A stretch of DNA of 61,712 nucleotides, filler included, from Candidatus Babelota bacterium (GTDB taxonomy: Bacteria > JAGOBX01): NCBI GenBank assembly GCA_017999075.1. It is 10 parts of 10 records of this genome, joined end to end, with 100 filler letters (N's around TTAATTAATTAA, not from the genome) between each part and the next. Parts side by side here need not be neighbours in the genome. Positions count along the whole stretch, not along the records: positions 19,700 to 33,157 come from JAGOBX010000042.1; 9 more parts are not named here. One strand, 5' to 3'. The notes beneath the pieces were generated by a model that had not been told where the DNA came from, did not search any database, and saw only the letters and a list, made by a program, of their open reading frames with translations. Of the stretch, positions 2,955 to 33,257 are shown in pieces (within the stretch, counting starts at the first letter, position 1; every line of letters starts with the position of its first letter). The position numbers were made by a program, and so were the translations under genes.

Positions 2955-3054
2955 NNNNNNNNNNNNNNNNNNNNNNNNNNNNNNNNNNNNNNNNNNNNTT
3001 AATTAATTAANNNNNNNNNNNNNNNNNNNNNNNNNNNNNNNNNNNNNNNNNNNN
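2955..3054. other. Artificial contig linker (first of nine)
   Basis: N run + TTAATTAATTAA (stops in all six frames) + N run, repeated identically nine times. Confidence 0.98.
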
Positions 3055-15300: not shown

Positions 15301-18300
15301 AACGCAACATGGAGCTCTACTGTTTCATTAACAGGTTATGGCGATAAAATCAGAGTAAGCGTTAATGATACTTTTGGAAGAAATGCGCAGGATACAATAA
15401 TTGTAAACTATTTTGAATCAATAGGGATAAATATAACATCTCCAGCAGATAATTATGATACTTTGGTTGGCGGCATAATTATCAGCGGGACAGTTAAAGG
15501 TGTAAATTCTGGAGATTCTGTGGTTTTATTAAGAAACGGATTAAATTATGATGTATATACATTTGTGAGTCATACAGATACTTTGTGGGCAATTTATACC
15601 GAATTGCCTTCGCAGAATGTTATATTCACTGCGAGGTTGAACAGCAGTTTGTTCGGACAAAACATAGCTTCTGTTTCTATAACTGCAAGCTATATTGATA
15701 CTCCATCTGTTGAAATTCAGTCGCCTGTAAATAATTATGACACAAAATCGTCATCATTAATTTTTAGCGGAACTACATACAACACACTCTCTAATGATGA
15801 GGCAATTATTTATCTTAACGGAACCTCAGTATTAAACTGGAATATTGACTCGAAAAATGGAAGCTGGTCGAAAACATTGAATTTGTCAGGAAAATCCGAC
15901 GTTGTTTCAATTTATGTAACTGATGCTTTTGGCAGAACAGGATGCGATACTGCGATAGTATCATACTACAAAATCCCTGAAATAGAAATAAAACTTCCTT
16001 CTTCTAATTCATGCACTACATTACAGTCAGTAACGGTTTCAGGAACAAGTTTGTATAGTTCTGTGAACGATACAGTAATAATTTATAAAAATGGTGTTGT
16101 ACATTCAAATTATATTATAACAGAAAATAACGGCAGTTGGTCAGGAACTGTAAGTTTGAGTTCATCAAATGATACAATTTTAGTAAAAATTACTGATAAA
16201 TTCAGCCAGTCAAGTTATGATACTATATTTTTGAATTATCTTAATATAACAAGTTTTTCTGAGAATGAAATTATAAATGTTTATGAAGATTTAACAACTC
16301 AAATACAGGTTGTATCGACAGAAAAAATAAGTAATTCTATTTGGTCAGTTAATTCCGGGTCAAATATATCTGTATCAGTTTTAGAAGGTGAAACAGATTA
16401 TATTTCAATAACTCCTAAATTTGATTTTACAGGGACAGAGACTTTGGTCTTAACGTTAAGATATTATCCTGATTTAGGTAATTTAGCTGAATATTTTGTG
16501 GATACAGTTCAGCTGAGCGTCAATGTAATGAATACTAACGATACTCCTTATTTCATAACTGAAATGCCGGATACTTTTGTTAATGTAACAAAATTATTTT
16601 GGTTAAAAGTTATTGGAACTGATACGGATGCAAATTCGATGACATTCAGTTTCAATGGTTCGGTACCGTCTGGAATGACTGTAAACCGTGTTGACGATAC
16701 GTCTGCTATAATTCAATGGACCCCATCTTCTCAACAGGTTGATTCATATTTTATAAATATCAAAGTTTCTGATAATTATGGTTATTATTCTCAGAAATTA
16801 TTTAAAATAACAGTTAATAGGCCTACGGTAATAATATCTTCACCGAATAATCTTGACTGCACCACAGTAAAAGAAGTAAAAATAAGCGGAATTACTGTAA
16901 ACAGTTCAAATAATGACGATATTAAAATTTATAAAAACAACGTGTTGCAGTCAAGAGTCAAATTGACTGCAGATAATGGCGAGTGGTCAGGTACTGTTTC
17001 TTTAAGTTCGCGAGCTGATTCCGTAAGAGTGGAAATAATTAATAGAACAACTTCAGTTTTATATTATGCAGATACAATAACATTGAATTATCTTGATATT
17101 TTAAATGATACAGTTTTATTGACTGAAGATTCGGCAGGAATTTTTATATTATCTTCTACTGAATCATCGGAATATGTTGAATGGTCAGTACTACCCGGGA
17201 AATATCAGACTGTCAAAATTATTGAAGGAACCGCAGATTATGTTATAGATACTCCCTGCATTGATTGTATAGGATATGACACATTATTATTAACTGCAAC
17301 TTATTTTCCAGATAGCCCTTTACGTACAAGAAGTATTTCCGATTCCAAAATTATTAACGTTATAATTCAGAATGTTAATGATAAACCGTATTTTACAAGT
17401 TCTGCGTCATTGAAGAATATAGAAGTAAGTATGTTATATACTTATTTAATTACAGCTTCAGATACGGATAATGATAAATTGACTTTCGATTTTTATATAA
17501 ATCTGAATAATGCATCGATAACTAAAATAAGTGATACGTCTGCGGTTTTGGAATGGACGCCAGATAAAAATCAGGTTGGAGTTCAGCCGGTTTCTGTCAG
17601 GGTTACAGATATAAACGGAGCGTATTCTATACAAACTTATAATGTTTTAGTTGAACCAAGGACATTGCCTGTATATAATATAAATTCTCCAGTTGCAAAC
17701 AATAATACATTAGAGTTAAACTGGACAAGAACTTCGGATACGGATATTGTGTATTATTATATTTATTCGGCAGATTATGACAGCGGTATAGGTTCAATAG
17801 ATGTTGCCAAGCCGTTAGATACAGTCCCTGCGTCAGTTAATTCCATAACTTTGAATAATATATTGAAAACAGGTGTTGAACAAATGATTACGGTTTTACC
17901 TGTAGATAAAAATGGTATAACAGCAGATATTAACGACGGAGGTTTTATAGTTGTTAAACCTGAACTTGATAATAATTGTCTCGTAGAATCAAAAATCAAT
18001 TTTATAAATGGATTTAAAGTATCAGGAGATTTTCTTAAAGTTGAATCGTTTTTAGTTAAAGGAAATGTTGAGAAAATGTCGTCGATAGTTTTTGAATATA
18101 GGAAAACTGGCGATACTAAATGGGAAACTATGGCGGTTGTATCAGGTTCAAATGTAAGCAATCCAATCAAAAATGTTAAAAATATAACAGAAAACGGTTT
18201 GTCTATAAATTGGAATATTTCACAATTTAACGAAGGTTCGTATCAGATTCGGACTGTTGCAACTGATGTCAATAATCTTGTTGAACAAAACCCTATGGCA

Positions 18301-19269
18301 ATAGTGATTTATATAATTAAAAATAATCAGGCGGCAGATTATTATTCTTATAAAGAAAACGGCGCTGAAGTTATAAGCCAGACAATTTTTGCCGGACTTG
18401 CGGGAGACAACAAAATAAACATTTTTACAGAATCTGAGAATAAAATTGATAAATCTACTATTGTATCAAGCGTTAAAGTTTCTATTCCTGGAGACTATGT
18501 TGATACAGGCAATAATCAGAAAATAGTAATAACTTTATTAACTCCTGAAATAATTGAAACAGTTAATTCAAATATCAAAGATCCTTTCGGTGAAAAAATT
18601 GTGGGAAATAATATTGTAGTTCTTGATACGATACCGTATAACTCTTTGGTTAGTTTAAATAATCTTATTGCGGAAGGACAGGAAAGCAGGTTAAATAAAG
18701 AAGCTAATGTTATAATTGATTATCCTGATAAAAATAACGATGGCTGGATAGATAATATTAATTCTCCGGTTCCGGTAAGAGAAGAATGGCTTGCCGTATG
18801 GTATCGTGAAAATATTTCTGAAGAATGGAAGATTTATAATATGGAAAAAGTCAAATTCGATTATGAAAAAAATACTGTAAATATCAGCGTTTCGCATTTT
18901 ACAATGTATGCTTTGTTTACCATGTCTGAAGCTATGAATATGAATAATTCAATTGATAATGTTGTCGTATATCCTAATCCGTATATTCCTAATGGAGCTA
19001 ATCCTAAACAAGGGAAGCCATATACTTCCAGCGATCCTGTTTCAGGAATTATATTTAACGGAATCAATGACGGAACAAAAATAGAAGTGTTTACTTTACG
19101 CGGAAAACTTGTTTGGGATGCAGTAGTTGATAATGCTGCTGCAGTTAATTGGAAATGCAGGTGGAATGTTAAAAATAATTCCGGAGAAGATGTTGCATCA
19201 GGATGGTATTTGTATGTTATTAATAAAAACGGAAATAGGAAAACAGGAAAAATTGCGGTTATTAGATAA
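6397..19269 (+). CDS. Giant secreted protein with two clostripain (peptidase C11) domains, Ig/FN3/cadherin-like repeats and a C-terminal FlgD/T9SS-like domain
   Basis: Signal peptide; WTFMVY.D.DN.LE, NHGGGW and GFDVCL each occur twice; cadherin-like NVNDKPYF and NTNDTPYF; ends VVVYPNPY..SGWYLYVI..TGKIAVIR. Confidence 0.88.
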   Translation: MINYKPTFMRFFLIIILILFNFSVLIFADTIQINKNTDISTGKIYGGNVNFVVMSLNLTLSGGSAVADTITQFAIKNNGTMVNSTDVSKLSLWYDAGTTNYWDAGDTKIGDLSWNGVSSMWDTANCAIPLFPSVTTKIIITITIDTNSVIGRTFNAQIPKEMIVCLSGDTGPASNLINSGTQTVSLLQLEMEKLEDIASGYIYPSSANNTVMALSISGAANVTDTVVLFSLKNLGNMDNNDVDTVSLWYDSNGNNQWNSGDVYINSLTWQGSGVWSSNSVNIVMTSGSAKVLVTVTMKSGLTVGDTLQLQIITGSCSASIAGTGPVTSITNSGIKTASAGKKWTFMVYLDGDNNLEEDGVTDFTEMASVGSNDDFNIVVQFDRITGYSTLHGDWKNTQRFYVTAGMDPTTANAISDWGDGSGGGREVNMADTQVFVDFLNWTKNNYPADSYVLVMWNHGGGWRSRSAGSSQRNKAVVWDESTAGEPRIRMSDMRRAIEQTGMKFDIIGFDVCLAGMIEVAYELKDLAKVVVASPLTEPGGGWPYTEILTYLKNNPTTTSAAFGSTIVDEYNNSYPSGPVTQSAYNIGNINTFTALIDDFSEKLMAANIWADIKTQRTAMVESSDPITGTLGEMDDGDDGTNSANTGIDLKAFAAALSGKEANLTTSITNLSNGFSNFIINFKSRDTSNHNGLAIFFPRLINNPTHKYSMKFGQASKWDEFLRMYWSNETGKGPYNLSMTPLSDSSITGNYYVGWSGAKDANGINKYRLKEYKDAQILFIDNAENGLSGWTNTGFSVTDRYKNSGTYSFASGEGYSTTKKITKSISLPAGKNYLLTYWIYNDAGGDAVSVKVNSSSKKSYSVNTISEPLETVDLSSYAGQTITLEFSVVFDNSLGWDGEGVFIDDINIWSYVSVSTVADTISSASDSIYLTGKTPDAYMYTIAASDGTNWSNEYGFDTTVVVGLNIDTLGIIVSDSIMRTQQNITVSGVSVKTGLSSDVLTKFSVKNLGSVSSSDIDNMKLWFDSDNNSQYSTGDTYIGILSWNAGLSQWDTQSAVIRLVSGSANLIVTIDVNSIADVGETFQAQVPVNGITSQSLGDGPSTVKTEKAVKTVINLNFSLTKMYDAPTAKILPGAQNVTVLSVRATGSNPVDTITQFALKNIGNMNNVQIDSVALWFDANGNLTYDAADTYIGLLGWNAGLSCWDTGISGTSKIVLTSGAANIIVTICVDTPAAVQGDSFQANIEINCCTAELSGFGPSTAILNSGIKTVSTGKAWTFMVYMDADNDLEPSILADLVEMYSVGSNDDLNIVAQMDRITGYDGTSGDWINTQRFYVTSGLTPTTENAISDWGDGSGGREVNMADSMVMVDFVNWAISNYPAEKYALVVSNHGGGWRSKRSAADKSSKTRALIWDDSADGAPGMKMPDFRRALEKIGKKFDLIGFDVCLAGMAEVAYEIKDYAEVIVASQRTEPGSGYPYDAILTTLKTNAQTYTAEQLGTLIVDEYYNSTSGDNSTQAAYRTSRMSNLKTAIDNFADAICSANIWSEIRTARETIASNANGENEEMDDGDDDGDNSGIDLYHFAELLSATSNAGVNSAASNLKNEISQFLIRFKKHYTTSDYANPGPDWNGIAIFLPNENYNPVHDKAIAFGRDSSWTKFLRYYRTSMDGSGAGEPIELIMNPIQDLVADAAVTVEWYSAYDGNGLLNYRLTQFKGVDLLFSENFENGIGNWTNSGFGLTTLYKMSGSSYSLSSGTGYNTDNSITLTNSISLPAGKNIMLTYWNYNDFAYDGSNFYDSGTIQVSTDNGASWTGVKSIVTGKYVSEDYDAVDISAYSGQNIKVKIVFKTDNVLGWDGEGMFLDDIKIWSYTDKTTVADTIGNGTLLFTVTDLSNDTYMFTLEAEDVNNNMSNPVGYDTVVVLVALDTPIINSVLINNHTGGIYAIDSPVITADSSTNSGTVYFNGNTSNTLKLLVNWQSVSTMKSINSEDIFGNGILTDTTSADSWILNFSNVTGRYDTYAVISAVNYQNRVDTVLINFIADTYSPAVSLITPADTYYSNVSGIYFNWNNASDDKSGTKYYLLQISTVSNFSVIDSSVILTDTTGYYGSFSEGIYYWRVKLADRVNNLSSDTESVSRIFSVDMTKPVISGIYVYTVNQADSGYLYRNGLLSSLEEDTIWLNSNFSISERMDIVWTDLNKDSVAGSNIFGTAPVDTSSADSWILNYTSNVKFGDTIIIVSAYDKNGNTDTAKINFREDISAPSTPVLTSPANMTYINSDTNLVWNQSSDTQSGFKHYKLEIFDTYAVNQSEPIYSVITSSLSVQLPVYSLEANTYCWRVIAYDNVNNFDTSVAYNTFVIQNKVPVITNIILTSSQMNNLAFAGRINQDYKLNVDEDTVYYSNFASSSNITLNFCITWSNGDTIYYDTLYYNSGFATSSGYVTDTSTSTTQSNTITYTITRNVNYPDTKIIIAVYDKTDGDSDFAVINIAADTKVDNVTLVYPTDDYCTSNLKPLFKWNSVTSEKYGVSGYYLKICSNTQFKTFEQSVFTTDTNYTLLTNLSEGKHYWTVLAADTLGNISDTLSSSFVYDTIIIDSTPPSIDFVYIKSSSPEYLYYNNQTFNQPLNISNKRSENVYINGNHSMNLVLNAAFDDNNPEKIIFGKCYENSDSVYFTSYQDTCYYLSIGTSKGDTQILITVYDKSGLTDTVLIVIKEDKIVTYLPSLELPENLAQEVQFDTYFVWSSDADELSGISYFRVYADTEGTFAAPYSIDTTSFIIRTSDLIQESSLQTGDSVYWKVETFDKVGNSRMSSARSYRVRTDFTPPYYSDEKPENNSMPNNSASIISLKYNDLNGVDTRYVKLYVNSADVTSLSTVTATSISFETSGIYPHGEKVYVMAILGDIYNNTTTVQWSFTPIYKNVSADILKPDDNHNTSTRIINVSGTAGAVKTGNKLLVYLNDVNVNTVSLTADASLNATWSSTVSLTGYGDKIRVSVNDTFGRNAQDTIIVNYFESIGINITSPADNYDTLVGGIIISGTVKGVNSGDSVVLLRNGLNYDVYTFVSHTDTLWAIYTELPSQNVIFTARLNSSLFGQNIASVSITASYIDTPSVEIQSPVNNYDTKSSSLIFSGTTYNTLSNDEAIIYLNGTSVLNWNIDSKNGSWSKTLNLSGKSDVVSIYVTDAFGRTGCDTAIVSYYKIPEIEIKLPSSNSCTTLQSVTVSGTSLYSSVNDTVIIYKNGVVHSNYIITENNGSWSGTVSLSSSNDTILVKITDKFSQSSYDTIFLNYLNITSFSENEIINVYEDLTTQIQVVSTEKISNSIWSVNSGSNISVSVLEGETDYISITPKFDFTGTETLVLTLRYYPDLGNLAEYFVDTVQLSVNVMNTNDTPYFITEMPDTFVNVTKLFWLKVIGTDTDANSMTFSFNGSVPSGMTVNRVDDTSAIIQWTPSSQQVDSYFINIKVSDNYGYYSQKLFKITVNRPTVIISSPNNLDCTTVKEVKISGITVNSSNNDDIKIYKNNVLQSRVKLTADNGEWSGTVSLSSRADSVRVEIINRTTSVLYYADTITLNYLDILNDTVLLTEDSAGIFILSSTESSEYVEWSVLPGKYQTVKIIEGTADYVIDTPCIDCIGYDTLLLTATYFPDSPLRTRSISDSKIINVIIQNVNDKPYFTSSASLKNIEVSMLYTYLITASDTDNDKLTFDFYINLNNASITKISDTSAVLEWTPDKNQVGVQPVSVRVTDINGAYSIQTYNVLVEPRTLPVYNINSPVANNNTLELNWTRTSDTDIVYYYIYSADYDSGIGSIDVAKPLDTVPASVNSITLNNILKTGVEQMITVLPVDKNGITADINDGGFIVVKPELDNNCLVESKINFINGFKVSGDFLKVESFLVKGNVEKMSSIVFEYRKTGDTKWETMAVVSGSNVSNPIKNVKNITENGLSINWNISQFNEGSYQIRTVATDVNNLVEQNPMAIVIYIIKNNQAADYYSYKENGAEVISQTIFAGLAGDNKINIFTESENKIDKSTIVSSVKVSIPGDYVDTGNNQKIVITLLTPEIIETVNSNIKDPFGEKIVGNNIVVLDTIPYNSLVSLNNLIAEGQESRLNKEANVIIDYPDKNNDGWIDNINSPVPVREEWLAVWYRENISEEWKIYNMEKVKFDYEKNTVNISVSHFTMYALFTMSEAMNMNNSIDNVVVYPNPYIPNGANPKQGKPYTSSDPVSGIIFNGINDGTKIEVFTLRGKLVWDAVVDNAAAVNWKCRWNVKNNSGEDVASGWYLYVINKNGNRKTGKIAVIR

Positions 19270-19599: not shown

Positions 19600-19772
19600 N
19601 NNNNNNNNNNNNNNNNNNNNNNNNNNNNNNNNNNNNNNNNNNNTTAATTAATTAANNNNNNNNNNNNNNNNNNNNNNNNNNNNNNNNNNNNNNNNNNNNG
19701 GCGTATACTCCTGAAAGTGATATTCCGCTGCTGAAATAGGTTTCTCACCTAGTTAATAAATGGAGGAAACGA

Positions 19773-19964
19773 ATGAATACAATGATATTAACACAAAATG
19801 AAATTAAACGTCAAGGATTTAATGCGCTGCAAAAGAATCTTGGGATAAGCGGTTTTATTAAATTTATCCAACAGTTCGATTTAGGCGACGGTGATTATAC
19901 AAAAGAACGGAAAAAAATTGTAAAAAAGAAAACTGTAGTGGAAATTGTTAAAGAAATTAGATAG
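19773..19964 (+). CDS. Small protein resembling PIN-toxin-associated antitoxin-like proteins
   Basis: GGAGG RBS; EIKRQGFNAL..LG...IKFIQQF..GDGDYTKER pattern. Confidence 0.55.
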   Translation: MNTMILTQNEIKRQGFNALQKNLGISGFIKFIQQFDLGDGDYTKERKKIVKKKTVVEIVKEIR

Positions 19965-20011
19965 AAATTTGTTATTTCAAAATCACATTTCAGATTTTTT
20001 AATTAGTATAA

Positions 20012-20256
20012 TTCCGATATAGATTTTAATCTAATCGGAAATCACTAACCGGAATCCGTAATTGTTTTAGCAGTCCTCCGGGTATCCGGTGGTGCGGAAG
20101 GCAACCCGACAGCCTCCTTCACCGTTGTTCCTACTGCCGCAGCGCAAAACACGGCTAGAGCCGGATTGCGAACCTTTTGGATTACTTTTCGGACTGTTTT
20201 TATAATAATTTTTCGTCATACCAATCCTGGCACCATTCCAATACATTACCGCTCAT
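20012..20256 (-). pseudogene. Decayed copy of the FGE/CLec 3' end of gene 21868-24198 (orphan VR-like cassette)
   Basis: Reads MSGNVLEWCQDWYDE(fs)YYKNSPKSNPKGSQSGSSRVLRCGSRNNGEGGCRVAFRTTGYPEDC*NNYGFR; aligns to 21852-22104 including sequence past the stop. Confidence 0.85.
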
Positions 20257-20299
20257 TAGGAACTTTTATTCTGCAATTTTTCCACTTTTTTTCCATTAT

Positions 20300-21613
20300 C
20301 TACTCTACAATTTTATTTATTGCCCATTTCCAATATGGTACACATATTACTGTATAATCCTCAATTTTCTTCAATTCTTCCTGAGATTTGGTTATAATAA
20401 AACCTTTTTTTAATTTGAATTTTTTCAGCGCTTCAAGCAGTCCTGTTATTTCACGGACTTCGTTATTTCTATTCAATTCATAACATACTTGATAAGCGCT
20501 ATCGATTTTTTTATTTTTACCTGTAATAAAATCACATTCTCTTGATTTATCATTTTTATAATAAAAGATTTTATTTTCGCGCTTAAGCAATTCTAAAAAC
20601 ACTGCATTTTCAAGTTTTCTGCCTGCATTTTCATTCTCGCTGAATTCTGCAATATTTATGAAACCATTGTCAGCAATATAAATTTTTTTTGACATATACT
20701 GCTCCGATGTCTTCAATGAATATTTCCCTGCAAAATATAAAAACCCTATATCTTCAAGATATGAAAAATAATCAAATACTGTGTCCTTGCTTAAACTGTA
20801 TTCTTTTTTATATTTGTTTATAAATGAATTAACTGAAAATTCACAGGCGTAATTGGTAAGCACATAATGCATAATCAGTTTTATTATATGCGTATTCCTT
20901 ATCGCGTAGCGTTCGACTATATCCTTGAAGATTATCATATCAAGATAATCCTTCAACCGCTCGTTTTTCTGGTGTATATCGTATTCCATTGTAACCGCAG
21001 GAAATCCGCCAAACCGAATGAATTCGTTTGCTCTTTTAACTATTCCAAACCGCGCTGTTGAGTATTCGCTGTTCTTTTCAATAACGCTGTTATTGAATTT
21101 CAGAAATTCATCGAAACTAAGCGGATATATTTTATAAGTGACTATTCTGCCGCGTAATTCGGTTGCTATCTCTGAACTCAGTAATCTGCTCGATGACCCT
21201 GTTATAGTTATCCTGTATTTCTTTTTTTCATATAACCGTTTTATAAACAATCCCCATTTATCAAGATTCTGTATTTCGTCAAAAAAAATATATAACTGCC
21301 TGCTGATATTTTCAGGAAATAATTCATAATACGCTTCAATTATCGAATCGTAACCGTTCGCGCTGCTGTTTAAATTTATAAGACGCTCGTCGTCAAAGTT
21401 GATATACAATATCTGATTTATATTTGTCCTGCCTTTCAGCAACTTCCTTATTTCCGTAAACAGCAGGTATGTCTTACCGCTTCTACGCAGTCCGATAATT
21501 GTGTTTATTTCGTTAGTGTAACGCAACGCCGTATTTCGTTCATATACCTTTTCGCTGAAATTCTTTATGTTTTCCTGCCACTCAACGATAATTCTTTTTA
21601 AATTTTCTTTCAT
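20300..21613 (-). CDS. AAA+ ATPase, AAA_14 + DUF4143 family
   Basis: GLRRSGKT Walker A, FFDEIQN Walker B, ITGSSS, GGFP, KKIYIADNG, ENAVFLEL..ECDF. Confidence 0.92.
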   Translation of the reverse strand: MKENLKRIIVEWQENIKNFSEKVYERNTALRYTNEINTIIGLRRSGKTYLLFTEIRKLLKGRTNINQILYINFDDERLINLNSSANGYDSIIEAYYELFPENISRQLYIFFDEIQNLDKWGLFIKRLYEKKKYRITITGSSSRLLSSEIATELRGRIVTYKIYPLSFDEFLKFNNSVIEKNSEYSTARFGIVKRANEFIRFGGFPAVTMEYDIHQKNERLKDYLDMIIFKDIVERYAIRNTHIIKLIMHYVLTNYACEFSVNSFINKYKKEYSLSKDTVFDYFSYLEDIGFLYFAGKYSLKTSEQYMSKKIYIADNGFINIAEFSENENAGRKLENAVFLELLKRENKIFYYKNDKSRECDFITGKNKKIDSAYQVCYELNRNNEVREITGLLEALKKFKLKKGFIITKSQEELKKIEDYTVICVPYWKWAINKIVE

Positions 21614-21646
21614 TACATAACCGCCAATAAAATAATTTTATATCCT

Positions 21647-21674
21647 ATTATATTAGGAAACTATTATTTTACAA
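21647..21674 (-). promoter_or_regulatory. Sigma70-like promoter of the ATPase gene
   Basis: TTGTAA-16 nt-TATAAT on the minus strand, overlapping a TCCTA-N6-TAGGA inverted repeat. Confidence 0.5.
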
Positions 21675-21851
21675 GTAAATTTTTGAAAATACAATAAATT
21701 TATTTCGGCTTGAGCTTCCGCTCTTGCCCAAATTTCATTCTTTCTTCTGCAACTTCTCCTTACTTTTTCCAAAGGGTAAAAGGGTTCCCGTCAGTTAAAA
21801 TATGCTGAATTTTACGAACTGACAGGCAAGTCCAAAGTGTTATTCTGTACT

Positions 21852-21884
21852 CTGTCCGATATAGAGTTTAATCTAATCGGACAG
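21852..21884. repeat. Hairpin across the stop codon of the FGE-domain gene
   Basis: CTGTCCGAT-A-TAGA..TCTA-ATCGGACAG; homologous hairpin at 20012-20040. Confidence 0.75.
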
Positions 21885-24198
21885 CACTAACCAACCGGAA
21901 GCCGTAGTTGCTGCCGCGGTACGACGGGCCGTTGCCGTCGCGGCTGGCAACACGACAGTAGTCGTCGCCGCCGTCGTACCAACCGCCGCCGCGCAAAACA
22001 CGGCCCGAGCCGAATTGCGGACCGTTAGGATTATCGGTCAGACTATTTGAATAATAGTCCTCCTGATACCAGTCCTGGCACCATTCACAGACATTGCCGC
22101 TCATATCGTATAAGCCATAACCGTTAGACCGCTTCTGGCCAACACTGTTTGTCCTGTTTCCGCTGTTTGAGCTATACCAGCCAACCTCGTCTAAATCATC
22201 GCTACCGGAGTATTCATATTCCTGCCCCCCTTTTGCTGCGTATTCCCATTCCGCCTCTGTCGGCAAGCGGAGCTTCATTCCTGTTATTTCATTTATTTTT
22301 TCTATAAATTCCTGACAATCCTCCCAACTTACTTGTTCGACTGGAAGATTATTGCCTTTAAATTCACTGTGGTTTTCTCCCATTACCGCTTCCCATTGTT
22401 CCTGCGTTACTTCGTATTTGCCGATATAAAAATCATCAAGTGTTACGCGGTGAACAGGTTTTTCATCATCGCTTCCATTATTAGAGCCCATATTAAAATT
22501 TCGGCCTTCTATAAAGACCATTTCAAGTTTAACGCCTCCGCCTAAATCAATCTCATCAGTAACGCCGTGTTTTATTTTCGGCAACGCAATATTCAATGCA
22601 AGCAATTTATTAAATCTCTTAACAAGCCCTCTGCTCTGTATTTTCCCTGCGTAATCCAGCCATTTATTCTTAAATGCTTCAAGGTATTTCTGCTGAATAT
22701 TCTGCCGCAGTTTTGATTTCACCATTTTTTCCATACTACCGAGTTCAGCTTTAAAATCGCCTTCGCGTTTTTTTATTGTCGCTTCCATTTCTATTTTCGC
22801 TTCTTCGGCAGACTGTATATACGGTGCAAGCATATTCGGATACTGACTGCTGATTTCAGGAAAAGCAGAACTCGCTTTTATTTTTTCCTGCATTTTATTC
22901 AAAGCGTCAAGTTTCCTCTGAATATCCTGTTCGTTCTGGCATTTCTGCAATTCTGTCTGATACCATTGCCGCATTTCTGAGGAATATTTTTCTTTTGCTT
23001 CTTCGTATTTACGTTTTTCTTCTTCCTTGCGTTTGCGTTCTTCCTCGTCCTTCCGCTTGCGTTCAAGTTCCTGTTGTTTTGCATAAACTTCGCGCCAGTT
23101 TTCAATTTTTGTATTTTTCATTTTTGAATAATCGATTACTTCTTCGTCATCGGATTTATATGTGAACACAGGCAGTTTCTCGTCAAGATATGAATTGTCA
23201 ATTTCTGTTTTTGGCCTGTTAGCCGCCTCCGCTTCAATCTCGCTCATAGCTTCCGCTGCAATATCCAGCTCAGATTTTCGGTTTTCAACTTCATTGGCTT
23301 TTTCGTCTTTCTTATAAGAAAATAAATTGAAATGAGAATATTCAACATCTCCGTCAGCCATATAAACTGGCGTCATCCGATTAACGCCTTTCTGGTCAGC
23401 ATACTCGGCTATCTTGATTTCAGCGTATGCTGTCAATTCTTCAATAGAAATCTTCAAGTCATTGTTCTTATCCATCTGCGGCAGCGCCCGCGATGACTCC
23501 TTCATATAAGTAAAATAATATGTGAACGCGCCATTGTTCTTATTTATATTTTCAATTGATTTTTCGTTATTTCCGCACGAAAAGATTGTTTTTACAATTG
23601 TCCCGCGTTCATCCGAGCGCCGAGCGGCAGAGCGGAGCTCCGCTGGATTATCCTCCCGTATCTTAACGCCTTTGCCTGGCTTTAAATTAACCTGCATTTC
23701 TCTGCCCGAGTCCCTGTCTTTTTTCTGAATTATAGGACGCGCTGCGTCAATTATTATAACAACTTCTTTCGGATTATTCTGTTTCAGCATATTGCGGATG
23801 CCAGACAAATCAAGGATGCCCATTTTAGTTTCTATATTTGCGTCAGAAGCAAATAACTGAACAGTATTCTTGTCATCAGTGAACGCCCTGCCGCTGAAAT
23901 AAAATATGATACGGTCATCGGGTCTTATTGTTCTGCTGAAATCGCTTATAAACTTGAACAACCGCGAAGCTGTCAGCATATTATTAGTTTTGTAATCATC
24001 TTTAAACAGCAGCGTGTAATCATCCTCAAATCCCGAATAATTAAGCAGGAATTTCATATCATCAGCATCGCCGTGACAGCAGGGCAGCGGCGTATAGAAA
24101 TCATAATTTTGTATGCCGATAATTACTGCACGGTTTTTAGCGTAAACGCTTGTGCATACAGCCATAAGTAAAAACAATACAAGCACTTTATTAAGCAT
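21868..24198 (-). CDS. Secreted pseudocaspase (C14 fold, dyad lost) + coiled coil + FGE-sulfatase/CLec domain; probable DGR target
   Basis: Signal peptide; AVIIGIQNY; FYFSGRA (His to Arg); IIDAAR (Cys to Ala); FYIGKYEVTQEQW, RLPTEAEWEYAA, GLYDMSGNVCEWCQDWY, RVLRGGGW..YGFRLV. Confidence 0.9.
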   Translation of the reverse strand: MLNKVLVLFLLMAVCTSVYAKNRAVIIGIQNYDFYTPLPCCHGDADDMKFLLNYSGFEDDYTLLFKDDYKTNNMLTASRLFKFISDFSRTIRPDDRIIFYFSGRAFTDDKNTVQLFASDANIETKMGILDLSGIRNMLKQNNPKEVVIIIDAARPIIQKKDRDSGREMQVNLKPGKGVKIREDNPAELRSAARRSDERGTIVKTIFSCGNNEKSIENINKNNGAFTYYFTYMKESSRALPQMDKNNDLKISIEELTAYAEIKIAEYADQKGVNRMTPVYMADGDVEYSHFNLFSYKKDEKANEVENRKSELDIAAEAMSEIEAEAANRPKTEIDNSYLDEKLPVFTYKSDDEEVIDYSKMKNTKIENWREVYAKQQELERKRKDEEERKRKEEEKRKYEEAKEKYSSEMRQWYQTELQKCQNEQDIQRKLDALNKMQEKIKASSAFPEISSQYPNMLAPYIQSAEEAKIEMEATIKKREGDFKAELGSMEKMVKSKLRQNIQQKYLEAFKNKWLDYAGKIQSRGLVKRFNKLLALNIALPKIKHGVTDEIDLGGGVKLEMVFIEGRNFNMGSNNGSDDEKPVHRVTLDDFYIGKYEVTQEQWEAVMGENHSEFKGNNLPVEQVSWEDCQEFIEKINEITGMKLRLPTEAEWEYAAKGGQEYEYSGSDDLDEVGWYSSNSGNRTNSVGQKRSNGYGLYDMSGNVCEWCQDWYQEDYYSNSLTDNPNGPQFGSGRVLRGGGWYDGGDDYCRVASRDGNGPSYRGSNYGFRLVSAVRLD
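21895..22000 (-). repeat. Putative DGR variable region (VR)
   Basis: 22 of 27 codons in 21898-21978 end in C (TAC GAC GGC GGC GAC GAC TAC..AGC CGC GAC GGC AAC GGC..TAC CGC GGC AGC AAC TAC); GC-rich patch at the CLec ligand-binding end. Confidence 0.75.
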
Positions 24199-24231
24199 TT
24201 TATTTCCTCGCTAATTTATAGTCAAACTTGT

Positions 24232-25944
24232 TTATTTTTTTGCTTTTTTCTTTATTTGAGATTTTTGTAAGTTTTTAACAGGAACCCCATTTTTTGAAGG
24301 TTGTTTCATTATTTCTTTTTTAGGTTTTTCTGCGCCATAATAAATAACTTCCTCGTATCTTTCAGATAATTCGGATGATACTTTATCAATATACGGTTTA
24401 TAGTCACTCCATTTATCTTTAAACGCGCTGACAAAATTAAGTTTGATATTTTTCTGCAAATCAGTTTTCAGCATTTTTTCTATTTCTGAAAGGTCAGCAG
24501 AAAGTTTATTGCTGAATTCTCGATATACTGCATCTTTCTTGTTCTTCGCAGTTTTCACTTCATTGAATACCGGTTCAATTAGCATCATGATTTTACTGGT
24601 TATATCTTCAAACCGCTTTTCTGAATTAATTTCATTTTTAAATTTCACAAGCGCGGAATATTTCTCATCTATGGATTTTGATTTATTAATTTTATTTATA
24701 ATATCTGAATACATTTGCTTTGATTTTATGAAATACTGTTTTTTCGATTTATGAAATGCGGCGCGTTCCTCCTCCTCATTAATTTGCGTTTCTATTTCTT
24801 TCTGGCGGTCGAGTATTTCTTCCCAGGAAAAAATATCCTGCGTACTGGCAGCTGAATTAAGCGCTGCTTCAAGTTTGGTTTTTGAATATTTCGGAGTATA
24901 TTCAGGAATATCGTCATCCAACGCATTGCTGTCAAGTTTCATAGAGTTAATCTTTGACAAAGCATCCGATTCGTCGTATGAAAACAATATATCCTTTGTC
25001 TTGTTAACAGCAGATGACTGCATAGCGTTAACAGTAGCAGAATTATCAAACTTGAAAAGTTTTGTATGTCCGCTCATAACTCCGCCTTCAATGCTGAATA
25101 CAGGGTTCATTTCGTTCAGGTTATTGCCGCGGCAGTATTCCTCAAGTCTGCTTTTAGCGAATACCGTTAATTCCTCGATTGTTACTATCCCGTCGTTATT
25201 CAAATCATTATCGTTTATCGCGTTCTTTATGCCTGAATTCTTTGTCTCAATCGGATATGTAAAATAATAAGTGAACGCGCCATTATTCTTTTCGTGCCGC
25301 TCGAACGACTGCTGCCCTTCCGCGCACGCATAAATCATTTTGATTACTGTCTGCGCGTTCTTGCGGTTTTCTTTTGCTTCCAGATTTTTCTGCGCGTCAA
25401 TTCCAGCCCCTGTATTGAAATATGATTTTATCTCCTGACCCTTATTTCTGCCTTTCAATACTTCAAATGTCCTGCAAGCGTCTATTATCATAACAATTTC
25501 TTCAGGATTGTTTTTCTTTAAATAATTTTTTATGTTCACAAGCGGCAGGCTGCCGAATTTCTCTGGCAAATCGCGATTGCCGTCATACGCAAGCAGATAG
25601 TTATTACCTTTATCATCGCCTACTCCGTGTCCGCTGAAAAAGAACAGCACATTATCGCCTGCTTTGACAGCTCTGGAAAAATCATTAATATTACGCATAA
25701 TTTTAGCGGCAGTCAAAGGGTCGCTGGATTTTTCGTCCTTCAAAACCATTATGTCTTCGTCCTCATATCCTGACATGGCAAGCAGTTGCCGCATATCGTC
25801 AACATCGCCGTGCGTACAGGACAACGGCGCATAATCCGCATAATTCTGAACGCCGATAAGAATCGCCTTTTTCGCGGCAGACAAAGTATTTGACATTAAC
25901 AAAATGGTTATAAACACTGATGCTACAATTTTTTTCATAAACAT
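24232..25944 (-). CDS. Secreted caspase-family (peptidase C14) protein with coiled-coil C-terminus
   Basis: Signal peptide; AILIGVQNY, FFFSGHG, IIDACR, GAFTYY; EF-hand-like DLNNDGIVTIEEL; GGGAG RBS. Confidence 0.9.
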   Translation of the reverse strand: MFMKKIVASVFITILLMSNTLSAAKKAILIGVQNYADYAPLSCTHGDVDDMRQLLAMSGYEDEDIMVLKDEKSSDPLTAAKIMRNINDFSRAVKAGDNVLFFFSGHGVGDDKGNNYLLAYDGNRDLPEKFGSLPLVNIKNYLKKNNPEEIVMIIDACRTFEVLKGRNKGQEIKSYFNTGAGIDAQKNLEAKENRKNAQTVIKMIYACAEGQQSFERHEKNNGAFTYYFTYPIETKNSGIKNAINDNDLNNDGIVTIEELTVFAKSRLEEYCRGNNLNEMNPVFSIEGGVMSGHTKLFKFDNSATVNAMQSSAVNKTKDILFSYDESDALSKINSMKLDSNALDDDIPEYTPKYSKTKLEAALNSAASTQDIFSWEEILDRQKEIETQINEEEERAAFHKSKKQYFIKSKQMYSDIINKINKSKSIDEKYSALVKFKNEINSEKRFEDITSKIMMLIEPVFNEVKTAKNKKDAVYREFSNKLSADLSEIEKMLKTDLQKNIKLNFVSAFKDKWSDYKPYIDKVSSELSERYEEVIYYGAEKPKKEIMKQPSKNGVPVKNLQKSQIKKKAKK

Positions 25945-25964
25945 CACACTCCCTGATTTTACTT

Positions 25965-26378
25965 TCATAATTTCGGTTTAATCCAGTCTTCATATTTTAA
26001 TCCGGATATCAGCGAGAAATGTCCGGTATTACCTGTAATCAGAGTAAAATTATTTTGTATAGTTATCGATGCTATACGCAAATCAGGTTCGCTAACGCTT
26101 ATTCCTTTTCTGTTCATTTGCGCTTTAAGCCGACCGTATATTTCAGCGCTCGCCGTATCAAACGGCAATATTGACAGGTAAGGGAATATACGTTCTTTAT
26201 ACGCTTTCAGCAATATATCGCTGTTTGAAGAATTGTATATACCAAAATATATCTCGGCAATATTTACCGATGTCGTGAACTGCATATTCTGCGGAACTGT
26301 TCTCAGTTTTTTCAGCAGCCGGTCTGACGGTTTTTTTTTCATAGTGTTGCTTATTGTATCAGTATCATAAACATACAT
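25965..26378 (-). CDS. vapC: VapC/PIN-domain toxin
   Basis: YVYDTDTIS, AEIYFG, DLRIASI, LITGNTGHF. Confidence 0.9.
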   Translation of the reverse strand: MYVYDTDTISNTMKKKPSDRLLKKLRTVPQNMQFTTSVNIAEIYFGIYNSSNSDILLKAYKERIFPYLSILPFDTASAEIYGRLKAQMNRKGISVSEPDLRIASITIQNNFTLITGNTGHFSLISGLKYEDWIKPKL

Positions 26379-26644
26379 TATAAAGATACCTCGCGCTCAG
26401 ACGACTTTTTCCTTTCAGAATAAATAATATCCACAAATCTATCTACTTCCTCGTCAGTCATTGCTCCTGCCGCATTCAGTAAACCGTTCCCTGAATTATT
26501 GCGCGCATATTCAGAAAAAGGCATAATAACCGCGACATTCTTTTTTTTCTTTGTTATAAAAATTTTTTCTTTTCTTGACTGTACATCGTTGATTATGGCA
26601 GACAGCGATGCTTTTGCTTTGGTCAATGAATAAACATTCGGCAT
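26378..26644 (-). CDS. Phd/YefM-family antitoxin
   Basis: SLTKAKASLSAIINDV..EKIFITK...VAVIMP; stop overlaps the vapC start. Confidence 0.85.
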   Translation of the reverse strand: MPNVYSLTKAKASLSAIINDVQSRKEKIFITKKKKNVAVIMPFSEYARNNSGNGLLNAAGAMTDEEVDRFVDIIYSERKKSSEREVSL

Positions 26645-26695
26645 ATAAATCACCTCGTTAATCACGGATTATGCTAATGCAATATTTAGGTTAAT

Positions 26696-26724
26696 AATAT
26701 AGTCTGTAAAACTATAACTGTCAA
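26696..26724 (-). promoter_or_regulatory. Promoter/operator of the phd-vapC pair
   Basis: TTGACA-17 nt-TATATT with an internal TATAGT-N7-ACTATA inverted repeat. Confidence 0.7.
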
Positions 26725-26810
26725 GCAAAATTTAAATCAAAACACATAAACGCATAATGCAACTTGAACATGAAAACCTTGTTAGAAAAATACTATTATT
26801 TTTTTCAGCG

Positions 26811-27983
26811 TCAATAATGCGTAAACTCATACACTTTCATAATATACGGCTTGCCTGTCAGCATATCAGGAAATCCGTTTATCTCATTGCGTATCGGATT
26901 CGGCGAACTTTTTATAATCGTGCCTTTCGCTGAATAGTTTTTTGTAATATCTACTTTGAACATATCATCGCTTATATTATTTTTAATTTGTTTTATCAGA
27001 GTATTTATTTCTTTCTGTTCTTCCTTGAACGAAAACACATAAAATATTTCTTTGCCTTTAATATCGTCAAACGCATATACCTTTCTATCCGGAATATAAT
27101 ATTCAATGCCTTTGCGCAGCGGGTTGCTGACTGACATATTCTGGTCATCAGGGAATATCAGGTTAACCTTTCTCGACGAGTCTATATTAAATACATAAAG
27201 GTAACAGTCCGCTGACGGCCGGGCATACAAACGGAAACTTTCGTCAGACATCACTGATTCGCCTGACTGCAATATCTTCTCAGAACCGTATGTTTTCTTT
27301 GTCATAAATGCGAACTGCATTTCAACAGGTAAATCAGCAAGCGCTTTTGCCCTTTCAAGTTCTATCTGCTTTCTGCCTTCAATTTCTTTTTCCTTTGCTT
27401 TTATTTTCTCAACCTCTTTCTGCTTTTTACTTTCAATAACTTTCAAATATTCGTCTTCCGGAACTTTGGCTTTCACAAATACTTTGTAATATTGTTCTAT
27501 TATATCATTATCAGACATTGCAGCCCATTTTTCAATATACCATTCGCTTGTCTTGACACGCGACACAAGCGCGTCTATCGCTTGCTTTTCATTGTTTACT
27601 GTTGCTTTAGTCGCGTCATGAATGTCAGAAGATAATCCGAAACCTGTAGTTATGCTTTTATAAAGTTCAGTCACTTCAACTCCGCAGTATGCCGCGAATT
27701 TTTTTATGCAGTCGCGGTGCGCGTTTTCACGGGCTTCCTTCTCTGTTGCGATTTTATCAGATATTCCGATAAAAAACATAAAACCTGCGGCAGGTTCCGG
27801 TTCATTGAATATCCATTGCGGCTTGGTTTCCGGATAAGCGGATAACAGCCGCTCGCCTGTAAACTTTTTCTGTATAACAACTGGAGGCTGTGTATCCGCT
27901 CGCTGCAATTCTTTTTTTGCAGCGCAGCCGAATAATAATAATACCGCAGTCATAAAGCATAATATCAAATTTTTTATATTCAT
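26811..27983 (-). CDS. Lipoprotein with LPP20-like domain and C-terminal DUF4384-like domain
   Basis: Lipobox LFGC; KPQWI..FIGIS; C-terminal DCYLYVFNIDSSRKVNLIFP..GKEIFYVF. Confidence 0.75.
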   Translation of the reverse strand: MNIKNLILCFMTAVLLLFGCAAKKELQRADTQPPVVIQKKFTGERLLSAYPETKPQWIFNEPEPAAGFMFFIGISDKIATEKEARENAHRDCIKKFAAYCGVEVTELYKSITTGFGLSSDIHDATKATVNNEKQAIDALVSRVKTSEWYIEKWAAMSDNDIIEQYYKVFVKAKVPEDEYLKVIESKKQKEVEKIKAKEKEIEGRKQIELERAKALADLPVEMQFAFMTKKTYGSEKILQSGESVMSDESFRLYARPSADCYLYVFNIDSSRKVNLIFPDDQNMSVSNPLRKGIEYYIPDRKVYAFDDIKGKEIFYVFSFKEEQKEINTLIKQIKNNISDDMFKVDITKNYSAKGTIIKSSPNPIRNEINGFPDMLTGKPYIMKVYEFTHY

Positions 27984-27992
27984 ACACTGCCC

Positions 27993-28742
27993 CTATTTAT
28001 CTAAAAAATCATTTTCTAATCTTTTCAATTCATTTAAATAATTATCTTTTATTTTTTTAATACTTTCATCATAATTATCTTCTATTTTCTCTAATTCAAT
28101 ATTATACTTTTCACTCATTAAATTTCTGTTATAATCAAATCTATCAAGAATTTTTTCTGAATTTGTTTCATAAAACTCTTTAATTTTTTCCGACAGTTCT
28201 GTTATTTGAAAGGGCTCAGAATCATTTGCTATTACAACTTGTTTATTCGAAAGTAATTTAATATTTGAATTATCATTGAAATCATTAATCCTGCCGGCAT
28301 TAACGCTTCCTTCAAAAACTGCAATTTCAGTAAAACTATTATTAGCCCTAATTAGTAAAGTAGTGCCTCTTATACATGCTTTTGCTGTGGGGGTAGCAAC
28401 TATATACTCTTGCTGTGAATCTGAAATTTTATCTAATAATATCAATCCTTTTTTTAAAATTATTGATGTGGTTTTTTTATCAAGATTTGAAATTTTAAGT
28501 AAAGCAGAGGTATCAATAAAAATAACAGTATTATCTGCAAAAACCAAATCTGCAGCGCCTGTTTTGTTTGTAATAATTATAGAATTAATATTTACTTCGC
28601 CTATAGTGTCGCATACAATCCACGAAGAAGATAAAGAATCCCTGATTTTAACATTTTGGTTCATCGGATTAATGATGCCAACTGCTGCTTCAATTCTGAA
28701 CTCAATAAAAACAATCAAAAACAAAATCGCATATTTTTTCAT
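27993..28742 (-). CDS. FecR-domain exported protein
   Basis: Signal peptide; ADLVFADNT, VATPTAKACIRGT, IAVFEGSV. Confidence 0.8.
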   Translation of the reverse strand: MKKYAILFLIVFIEFRIEAAVGIINPMNQNVKIRDSLSSSWIVCDTIGEVNINSIIITNKTGAADLVFADNTVIFIDTSALLKISNLDKKTTSIILKKGLILLDKISDSQQEYIVATPTAKACIRGTTLLIRANNSFTEIAVFEGSVNAGRINDFNDNSNIKLLSNKQVVIANDSEPFQITELSEKIKEFYETNSEKILDRFDYNRNLMSEKYNIELEKIEDNYDESIKKIKDNYLNELKRLENDFLDK

Positions 28743-28778
28743 TTTTAAAAATAAAAAACACACAAAGCAATTTTTGAA

Positions 28779-28856
28779 TTAACCCAAGTTTAATCAAAAA
28801 AAGTATTTATTATTTACACATCAATACAATACTAATTTTGAGTAAACCCGGGTTAA
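28779..28856 (-). terminator. Long intergenic stem-loop after the lipoprotein gene
   Basis: 29-nt arms match at 24 positions; two mismatches become G-U pairs on the minus (mRNA) strand. Confidence 0.65.
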
Positions 28857-28865
28857 AATATCATT

Positions 28866-29525
28866 TTATTTATCGAATCCTGATTCCTTCATTTTCTCAA
28901 ATGCATTCAACGCGTCTTGCATTTGTTTTTTCGCCTGTTCATTTTTTGCTTCTTTCATTTTTTCTTTAATTTTTTCCTGTTCTCCTTCAATTGTATCCTT
29001 GTATGCTTGGTCTATCATAGATTTAGGCATACCTGCAAGCCCATATCCTTTATAGTATATTTCTCCGAGTTTTGTCTGCCATTTTTCAAAATACCATTTT
29101 TCTACTTTCAACTGTTTTGCTACACCTGCTGACAATTGTTCTTCAAATCCTCTTGCTGCTTTTGTAGCGTCAGATATATCGCTTGACAATCCGAATTTTG
29201 TAGTTATCTGTTGAAAATGGTCTTTAACAGCAACGCCAAGATAATTTACAACCTGTTTAGCGGAATCTCTGCGGATTTCTTCTCGCATACCGTTTTCAGT
29301 AGAATTCTTTCCAGACAATCCAACAAAATACATTGTAGGTCCTTCGCTTTTAGGTTCTTCAATTGTCCATGAAGGTCTTTCTCCTGAAGTCCAAATCATA
29401 CGTTCTGTTTCCTCAAAAGCTTTGGATACTTCTCCCTCTTTCTTAACAGTATCTTTATTCCCTGCGCAACTAATCAATAAAGAGCTTATAATTATTAATA
29501 ATCCCATAACTTTAAAAATATTCAT
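28866..29525 (-). CDS. LPP20-like lipoprotein
   Basis: Lipobox LISC; RPSWT..YFVGLS; paralogous to 26811-27983 (ITT.FGLSSDI.DATKA..WY.EKW); GGAGG RBS. Confidence 0.75.
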   Translation of the reverse strand: MNIFKVMGLLIIISSLLISCAGNKDTVKKEGEVSKAFEETERMIWTSGERPSWTIEEPKSEGPTMYFVGLSGKNSTENGMREEIRRDSAKQVVNYLGVAVKDHFQQITTKFGLSSDISDATKAARGFEEQLSAGVAKQLKVEKWYFEKWQTKLGEIYYKGYGLAGMPKSMIDQAYKDTIEGEQEKIKEKMKEAKNEQAKKQMQDALNAFEKMKESGFDK

Positions 29526-29740
29526 AATTTTATTCCTCCAAAAAACTACAGATTTATAACACTTTAATCAAAAAAAAATTAAAAACTATATTGGTCCAGG
29601 CAGATTTACTTATACCACCTCCTTTACGCCTGAATCTGATTAAATGGTATAGTTAATATTTCATAATATAAATTTTGTAAAAATGTTAGAACTTCAATTT
29701 GAAAACATTTCATTATACTCTATAATCTTTATTAAGTTCG

Positions 29741-32539: not shown

Positions 32540-32564
32540 TTTATTTAACTCCTTTAAAATAATT

Positions 32565-33044
32565 TTACAGGCGAGGCACCTTAAATAGTTCAATCAATGA
32601 AAATTCAAGAAATGTTTCAATGTTGTCGATACCCAAATCCTTCATTTTAATCCATTCATATTCATTAAAATATACTAATATTTCCCCCGTTTTAAATAAA
32701 TTATTGGCTATTGAATTTTCTCTAACTTTATTAATAACAATTTGCTTATTAGTTTTATCGATTTCATATTCAATACCGCATTTATCAATGATTAATTTTC
32801 GCATATATTCAATTACATCAGCAATTAATTTTTTGTTTTTTTGTTTTAATTCATTATAAATATCTGCATTCGGTTCCTGGCGATCATCACAATAGTAAAA
32901 TTTAATATCAAAAGTCGAATTTTCTTCTACTTTTAAAAAGGCGTCAACTTGAAAAATATTTTTTTTTTCATTAAATTTTATATCCCAATCTTTTTTTATA
33001 TCCAAATTTTTTTCTTCAAACATAAATGAAATTTTATTATTCAT
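32565..33044 (-). CDS. Hypothetical protein with possible partial PDZ-like C-terminus
   Basis: 159-aa ORF; GIEYE..IVINKVRENSIA...TGEILVYFN resembles PDZ. Confidence 0.4.
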   Translation of the reverse strand: MNNKISFMFEEKNLDIKKDWDIKFNEKKNIFQVDAFLKVEENSTFDIKFYYCDDRQEPNADIYNELKQKNKKLIADVIEYMRKLIIDKCGIEYEIDKTNKQIVINKVRENSIANNLFKTGEILVYFNEYEWIKMKDLGIDNIETFLEFSLIELFKVPRL

Positions 33045-33257
33045 ATTATTAGCATTTGTTATTTTTATTGTTGATTTTTGAGTTTTGCCTGAATATAATA
33101 AATTAGCACCAGCTGCAGCATACCAATAAATAGCCGATTTAGCATCATATCCAATACNNNNNNNNNNNNNNNNNNNNNNNNNNNNNNNNNNNNNNNNNNN
33201 NTTAATTAATTAANNNNNNNNNNNNNNNNNNNNNNNNNNNNNNNNNNNNNNNNNNNN

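Follow-up and report, generated by a model that had tools for sequence, protein, structure and literature searches.

TvpA (Treponema denticola variable protein 1; PDB entry 2Y3C), the variable protein of a diversity-generating retroelement (DGR), is a stand-alone lipoprotein that adjoins the reverse transcriptase (RT) and the template of its element. Variable proteins that join an orthocaspase to a lectin domain have been described as well, as have DGR targets that are remote from their element (PMC7517822, PMC4891356, PMC7159879). In the account given for cyanobacteria, 76 of 121 targets are remote (PMC7517822), and templates, too, are reported to lie elsewhere in the genome (PMC7159879). For Treponema denticola, a full DGR system is reported in only 9 of 17 strains. 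Target genes persist in strains without RT and template, and that report interprets them as what remained after a DGR was lost or as genes that arrived by themselves (PMC4891356). Here, we compare these systems with a gene for a protein designated P0001, which is encoded on the minus strand of contig JAGOBX010000042.1 of Candidatus Babelota bacterium (assembly GCA_017999075.1), within a stretch of 61,712 nt that is referred to as the window. We conclude, with a probability of about 0.8, that a DGR wrote the last ~42 codons of this gene, which would form a variable region of the TvpA class, that is, of the C-type-lectin class of the formylglycine-generating enzyme (FGE) type (coordinates of all features are given in Table 1).

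From the N- to the C-terminus, P0001 comprises a signal peptide, a caspase-like domain, a long coiled coil, and an FGE-sulfatase/C-type-lectin domain (aa 559-770), the latter being the sole Pfam domain in the protein (PF03781, FGE-sulfatase; E = 8.6e-51). The top sequence match of this domain in the PDB is TvpA (E = 1.8e-44), whereas true FGEs match it at 3.7e-27 or weaker, which is at least 17 orders of magnitude worse. An AlphaFold model of the domain (48 sequences in the alignment; pLDDT 94.3) likewise finds its best fold match in 2Y3C, with a TMq of 0.92, an rmsd of 1.6 Å, and 35% identity, compared to a TMq of about 0.78 for FGEs. Furthermore, alignments to the FGE enzymes 6MUJ and 2Q17 place 'ydggddyc' of P0001 opposite 'lchdsyc', leaving the domain with only the second of the two loop cysteines, which we take to be the catalytic, copper-binding pair; the three residues that follow the second cysteine in these enzymes are missing from P0001. 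As judged from these alignments, P0001 is not a true FGE/SUMF1. With TvpA, it shares the position of the variable region at the extreme C-terminus and the frame GGxW...C...R...P..R...GFR around it. It differs in the fusion of this domain to a dead caspase and a coiled coil, in a first loop that is one residue longer, and in that no RT or template was seen near the gene within the window.

In the caspase-like domain of P0001 (within 23500-24198, minus strand), both dyad residues are lost (FSGRA and DAAR), while the His/Cys dyad is intact (FSGHG and DACR) in a paralogue encoded directly upstream, the first 256 aa of which are 41% identical to the first 233 aa of P0001. The dyad is also intact in four homologues of P0001 with the same architecture (P0003-P0006). 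No Pfam call was obtained for the caspase domain at E <= 0.01, only weak NCBIfam and PADLOC matches. By its sequence, P0001 is not an active caspase, and its signal peptide, the loss of the dyad, and the non-FGE lectin domain together indicate that it would be exported and would serve as a binding module without enzymatic activity, borne on a stalk formed by the dead caspase. Nine full-length homologues were identified in total, and the four of the same architecture are 32-36% identical to P0001 and have ordinary C-termini. At 90% identity, the cluster of P0001 has 2 members among ~15 billion sequences, both of which stem from this contig.

While P0001 would work like the targets of TvpA-class DGRs, its architecture resembles that of the cyanobacterial orthocaspase-lectin proteins, for which an N-terminal caspase-type peptidase on a C-terminal lectin-fold variable domain is described (PMC7517822). 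Most of these are predicted to be cytosolic, whereas P0001 carries a signal peptide. Further differences are that P0001 originates from an uncultured bacterium of another lineage with 31% GC, whose NamZ has its closest matches, at 57-68% identity, in MAG (metagenome-assembled genome) proteins labelled bacterium, Ignavibacteriae, or Bacteroidota, that its caspase dyad is lost, and that the vWA/MoxR partners of the cyanobacterial proteins are not seen on its contig.

The variable region had been proposed in a sequence-only reading of this DNA, on the basis of a coding-strand string that we confirmed on the minus strand, inside the interval 21895-22000 named there. The string corresponds to codons 739-767 (variable core) and indeed contains 22 codons ending in C, although the total is 29 codons and not 27 as had been counted; of the remaining codons, 4 end in T, 3 in G, and 0 in A. 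The AT-rich setting was described correctly too: GC is 0.68 in the core compared to 0.31 in the window and 0.41 in the rest of the target gene, and no other 87-nt segment of the window is as rich in GC as the core. Codons ending in C are strongly enriched (22/29 in the core vs 138/747 elsewhere in the gene; Fisher p = 1e-10). Within the core, 17 codons of the form NNC (741-747, 752, 754-757, 760, 762-765) are set between the scaffold codons W, CRVA, R, P, R, and GF. For these amino acids, that all 17 of the variable Tyr, Asp, Gly, Ser, and Asn codons end in C has a chance of 10^-11.8 given the codon usage of 33 other open reading frames (ORFs) of the window, and of 10^-6.7 given that of the upstream part of the target gene itself; in window genes, Tyr, Asp, and Asn codons end in C in only 15-21% of cases.

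The pattern is sharper still for adenine. Codons 729-770, which we regard as the variable region in the wide sense, contain 14 adenines, each of them at position 1 or 2 of an NNC codon and none at a third position (binomial 5e-7), and 30 of the 42 codons are free of adenine, compared to 32% of codons upstream in the gene (p = 1e-7). This is what the design of a DGR template predicts, with an A-free scaffold and AAC as variable codons. In line with the suggestion that the variable codons can be derived from AAC by changes of A, mostly to G, their 34 first and second positions consist of 14 A, 16 G, 4 T, and 0 C. None of the 17 variable codons has drifted to a T or A ending, and no scaffold codon has gained an A; this lack of silent decay argues for recent rewriting. 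The seven residues between Trp and Cys, as opposed to six in a decayed copy of the region (see below), were also found as reported, residue 745 being an insertion that occurs in 0 of 47 aligned relatives. The all-AAC template and the 'AAC-run expansion' that had been put forward alongside are guesses, and the template itself may encode glycine at some of the GGC codons; at column 744, 30 of 46 relatives have Ala.

For comparison with DGRs in which the template can be read directly, a protein-guided scan of one genome per species was performed, which yielded 80 related loci with 46-61% identity, none of them close enough to be the same element. These loci were subjected to an adenine-tolerant repeat scan and to Pfam analysis, and cassettes of RT and template were identified in 2 of the 80: L055, from a MAG of Candidatus Gallipaludibacter merdavium, and L033, from a Planctomycetia MAG. 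Both were used as positive controls and rulers. Their FGE domains are 50-52% identical to that of P0001, their cassettes are ordered target, accessory gene (HRDC-type; HRDC in L055), RT, and template, and the mismatches between template and variable region fall nearly all on template adenines. The two templates read ...SNRVNRGGSW NN(N/T)A(S/R)N CR(VS/SA) N R N(N/R)N(T/D) P(T/S) N R NNN (L/M)(G/A)FR. After the Cys, seven positions are Asn in both templates and one is Asn in one and Arg in the other, and at these eight positions the target gene has AGC, GAC, GGC, AAC, TAC, GGC, AGC, and AAC, all of them NNC. The A-free zone of the target gene starts 11 codons before the conserved Trp, and template homology in L033 and L055 starts 10-11 codons before it.

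The same positions stand out in the family as a whole. Across 47 relatives, with a mean column entropy of 1.44 bits, 13 of the 17 NNC codons (16 of which have a column in relatives) coincide with columns of at least 3.0 bits, while the scaffold columns R733, V734, R736-G738, W740, C748-V750, R753, P758, and G766-R768 have an entropy of at most 1.2. Of the 80 loci, 48 contained a match to the regular expression for the motif itself and were scored, whereas 32 without a match were left unscored. Among the 49 sequences comprising the target gene and these 48 loci, the GC excess of the region over its locus is largest in the target gene (+0.35). Some relatives among the 48 resemble it, with a fraction of C-ending codons of 0.5-0.7 and 0-1 A-ending codons, and others form an ordinary class (L060, L066, L072, L073, and L079) with a C-ending fraction of 0.11-0.19 and 6-12 A-ending codons. 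Taken with the TvpA-like fold, the placement of NNC codons on hypervariable columns and the start of the A-free zone, which matches that of verified templates, support the assignment as a DGR-type variable region.

The 3' end of another target gene of the FGE type, now decayed, is found 1.85 kb downstream of the target gene, beyond an ATPase gene. This copy of 245 nt has suffered a frameshift, an in-frame TAA, and a change of Trp to Arg. Its homology to the gene begins at the MSGNV motif and ends exactly at the 3' base of a hairpin that spans the stop codon of the gene. Identity between the two amounts to 76% and 87% in two 5' segments, 28/33 in the scaffold codons, and 82% in the hairpin, but falls to 13/34 when positions 1-2 of the variable codons are compared (Fisher p = 1.3e-4 vs scaffold codons and 9e-6 vs flanks). 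Between these in-window paralogues, differences are thus concentrated at the variable positions, as expected of copies of a DGR target. The third positions of the copy have drifted, with 14 of 28 codons ending in C and several in A, whereas the intact gene lacks such drift.

The copy was also considered as a template. However, its variable codons are diversified (TTC, ACC, ACC, TAC, GAC, TGC, among others) rather than AAC-rich, and it carries 4-7 non-A mismatches per 60 nt in the adenine-tolerant scan. It was therefore rejected in this role and represents a second, abandoned variable region. After the GFR codons, gene and copy are further distinguished by a 4-nt GGTT indel (21885-21897 vs 20041-20049, minus strand), so that they end in different frames, the gene at a TAA in the hairpin loop and the copy at a TAG in the 5' arm.

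The steps by which such a region is written are established for DGRs. For P0001, the fold, the codon and adenine pattern, its agreement in register with verified templates, and the restriction of paralogue divergence to these positions are observed, and from them we infer retrohoming as the origin of the pattern, as well as its timing. An AAC-rich template repeat would be transcribed; when this RNA is copied by the RT, random bases would be inserted opposite its adenines, and the product would take the place of the 3' end of the target gene. In this process, the A-free scaffold codons would stay fixed and ~17 AAC-derived codons would become NNC, which would re-specify the ligand-binding face of the exported protein. 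RT, accessory gene, and template are not on any of the ten contigs that make up the window; therefore, the gene would be a target on which a distant DGR acts in trans, or else one that has lost its DGR only recently.

Several observations weigh against a DGR origin of the region. As the sequence-only reading had stated, no RT or template is present in the window, and domain, tblastn, and repeat scans of its 61.7 kb yielded neither. RVT_1, Avd, and HRDC were not found by Pfam in 42 ORFs of >=100 aa, in 24 further frames including contig-end pieces, or in an ORF of 4290 aa that was searched in four pieces. Tblastn of the window with the RTs and accessory proteins of L055 and L033 returned nothing below E = 0.17, and the adenine-tolerant scan of the window for a template returned only the decayed copy. 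Both verified relatives have their RT, HRDC-type accessory gene, and template no more than 3 kb away from the target, and the contig of P0001, which reaches 2.2 kb past the gene on the corresponding side, contains neither RT nor template. Since the window consists of ten unlinked contigs of a fragmented assembly, this absence carries little weight. Beyond the window, the scaffold pattern with N at the variable positions, which had been checked on the window before the genome scan, had 0 exact matches in 185,579 species genomes, not even to the variable region itself, so that this set does not include the source genome. Blastn of 21840-22130 gave no match among phage records and matched 14 plasmid records, all of them only at the conserved FGE motif upstream of the variable region. 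The region was, moreover, assembled as a single clean allele, and the protein collection holds no second one.

The relatives add to these points. No RT was found by tblastn within 10 kb in 78 of the 80 loci, many of which bear the signature, while the verified variable region of L055 is without it (C-ending fraction 0.37, GC excess 0.03), since AAT is used alongside AAC in the L055 template. The signature is thus uncalibrated, as L055 lacks it and the loci without an RT do not provide true negatives. Finally, the substitution spectrum of the target gene is skewed in that C is missing from it altogether, which could reflect selection; alternatively, glycine may be the original residue at several GGC codons.

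The hairpin across the stop codon has to be weighed in the same context. It starts 5 nt after the end of the A-free zone and folds as DNA with -11.5 kcal/mol (z = -3.6), a stability that none of 200 shuffled sequences reached. The decayed copy keeps the hairpin (20012-20040; z = -3.0), although its outer stem is changed on both arms, so that it is conserved as structure rather than sequence between the two copies. This is a likeness to the system of Bordetella phage BPP-1, where Mtd is followed by an IMH (initiation of mutagenic homing) site plus hairpin/cruciform, with the inverted repeat just 3' of the variable region and overlapping the stop; the hairpin of phage DGRs is reported to lie 4-34 bp after the variable region and to be needed for homing (PMC3240598). 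According to the same description, however, phage stems are GC-rich, with 7-10 bp and a 4-nt GRNA loop (PMC3240598), whereas the hairpin here is AT-rich and bulged, with a 6-nt loop in the gene and a 4-nt loop (TAAA) in the copy. Furthermore, Mtd, which forms part of phage tail fibres, belongs to another lectin subtype than P0001, and no significant hairpin was found at the matching place in L055 and L033 (z = -1.7, +0.2, and +1.6). The hairpin of both copies may be a DGR target-recognition structure; it is compatible with a DGR target site but not diagnostic, and its use as a diagnostic feature was rejected, with the verified relatives lacking one.

The alternative that survives best is an orphan or fossil variable region, which a DGR wrote earlier and which is now subject to ordinary evolution, RT and template having been lost or never transferred. 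We regard this as a serious contender, if short of even odds, and as an equally ordinary outcome as a DGR elsewhere in the genome. It agrees with the absence of an RT and template from contig and window and with the single clean allele, and two further observations that speak for it count against a DGR still at work: the adjacent second copy is already a pseudogene, and the GC-elevated patch (0.33-0.41) that holds both together with VapC/Phd genes and a PDC-S01 ATPase suggests an island that was transferred without its DGR. There is also precedent, as T. denticola strains are reported to keep targets without RT and template (PMC4891356). These strains share with the present locus an FGE-type variable-region gene without RT or template nearby, but in their case the absence is established on whole genomes, compared to ~62 kb of unlinked contigs here. 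On the other hand, an orphan would be expected to show what the truly abandoned copy shows, namely visible decay, yet 17/17 variable codons of the gene end in C and its scaffold has gained no A, despite genomic C endings of no more than 15-21% for Tyr, Asp, and Asn. Given this difference between gene and copy, any loss of the DGR would have to be recent. Likewise, the lack of an RT within ten short contigs says little. An RT is also missing within 10 kb in 78 of 80 relatives, and remote targets are common, as noted above for cyanobacteria. Because there is no silent decay in an AT-biased genome and remote targets are common, we lean slightly towards a DGR that is still present and acts in trans.

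It is very unlikely, by comparison, that the region is not related to DGRs at all and represents an ordinary lectin-fold C-terminus, shaped by conversion or transfer from a GC-rich donor and by selection of the binding loop for Tyr, Asp, Gly, Ser, and Asn. Such residues are indeed typical of binding sites, FGE-sulfatase domains are very common and most of them are not known as DGR targets, the whole gene has an elevated GC of 0.42 compared to 0.31 in the window, and no A-to-C change is seen among the 34 positions. However, a GC-rich donor would yield codons ending in G as well as in C, and it would not account for 42 codons in which A is restricted to the first two positions of NNC codons (p ~1e-7). 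The anomaly also starts and stops where template homology does in verified DGRs, and paralogue differences are concentrated at exactly the variable positions. Moreover, P0003-P0006 do not share the anomaly despite having the same architecture, and the closest solved relative of the domain is a DGR variable protein and not an enzyme. Finally, it is highly improbable that the decayed copy is the remnant of a local template whose cassette had its RT replaced by the ATPase gene: the order of target, one gene, and partial 3' copy mirrors that of the L055 and L033 cassettes, and the first four codons that distinguish the two show A in the copy as opposed to G or T in the gene, but the diversified codons and non-A mismatches described above speak against it, and the homology begins ~90 nt further upstream than in the L055 and L033 templates and runs through the post-stop hairpin, as expected of a truncated target gene.

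A DGR-written variable region thus remains our reading of the end of P0001. If a cognate DGR exists, a remote, caspase-linked lectin target is added in a poorly sampled, low-GC, uncultured lineage, and the design of a peptidase combined with a DGR-diversified binding domain, so far mainly cyanobacterial, would be extended, while knowledge of how DGRs work is unchanged by P0001. In an AT-rich genome, a DGR-written stretch is visible by composition alone, through its GC content and the confinement of A to positions 1-2 of NNC codons; therefore, orphan or remote targets can be flagged in fragmented assemblies with the RT on another contig. Going further, P0001 might be the sensor of a diversifying, immunity-like conflict module outside cyanobacteria, in which the lectin would be continually re-specified by a DGR in trans, the coiled-coil-tethered dead caspase would recruit or regulate the active upstream paralogue, the PDC-S01 ATPase and VapC/Phd would belong to the surrounding island, and the AT-rich hairpin at the stop codon, with a loop unlike that of phages, would mark the target for the remote DGR. 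We consider this scenario speculative and rather unlikely in its entirety.

Table 1. Features of the target gene, its variable region, and the surrounding window (positions along the window).
Feature	Position	Strand	Basis or description
Target gene P0001, 776 aa	21868..24198	-	ORF and translation
Putative variable region, wide sense, codons 729-770	21889..22014	-	A only at positions 1-2 of NNC codons; presumed extent of template homology
Variable core, codons 739-767	21898..21984	-	String quoted in the sequence-only reading
Inverted repeat (hairpin) across stop codon	21852..21884	-	Stem of 9+4 bp, one bulge, 6-nt loop with TAA stop
Decayed 3' fragment of second FGE-type target gene, MSGNV motif to hairpin	20012..20256	-	Repeat family D5, alignment to gene
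AAA_14/DUF4143 ATPase, between gene and decayed copy	20300..21613	-	Pfam; PADLOC PDC-S01 (candidate defence family), E = 1.2e-99
Upstream paralogue, caspase (Peptidase_C14), without lectin domain	24232..25968	-	Pfam, E = 2e-23
Spacers	2955-3054, 6006-6105, 19600-19699, 33158-33257, 36176-36275, 49685-49784, 52696-52795, 55703-55802, 58710-58809		

The window was composed of its ten contigs by means of nine 100-nt spacers (44 N, TTAATTAATTAA, 44 N), and repeat family D1 of the window repeat scan is an artefact of these spacers. The contig of the target gene spans 19700-33157 (13.4 kb). On it, the ATPase is a neighbour and no part of a DGR; it is placed as if replacing most of the truncated second copy. 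The caspase paralogue is a neighbour as well and a possible partner of the target gene, and its live domain could form a dead-sensor/live-enzyme pair with the dead caspase-like domain of P0001. Adjoining the caspase genes is a toxin-antitoxin pair of VapC (PIN) and a Phd/YefM antitoxin (25965-26668, minus strand). Further upstream on the same strand (26811-32593), a DUF4384 protein, a FecR-domain protein, and a protein of 950 aa are encoded, the last of which combines a CsgG-like N-terminus with ten PEGA repeats and a tail rich in Gly. This low-complexity tail accounts for the second-highest peak of GC in the window (near 29772), which is unrelated to the variable region. Many relatives with an FGE domain are fused to PEGA domains.

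Among the related loci, L005 gave a third, single match in the adenine-tolerant scan, to an upstream repeat inside the same multi-domain FGE gene. This repeat (9807-9926 vs 10530-10649, plus strand) resembles a weak template of the repeat that follows it (FNNARN vs ISSAWS), with 7 A-mismatches per 50-nt window and no RT within 10 kb. In L033, the RT is split over two overlapping ORFs (11464-12391, plus strand), each with part of RVT_1, which points to a frameshift or an assembly error. L055 contains two tandem FGE targets (9455-12033, plus strand) that remain nearly identical over >60 nt after the stop, far outside the stretch homologous to the template; with their conserved 3' flanks, they are much like the pair of gene and fragment described here.

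Elsewhere in the window, a second toxin-antitoxin pair consists of MazE and a PemK/MazF toxin that is cut by the contig end (58196-58707, plus strand). The ORF of 4290 aa mentioned above (6397-19269, plus strand) encodes two clostripain (Peptidase_C11) domains followed by fn3/Ig-type domains, and the clostripain domains lie within an internal duplication of ~2.8 kb with 73-75% identity.

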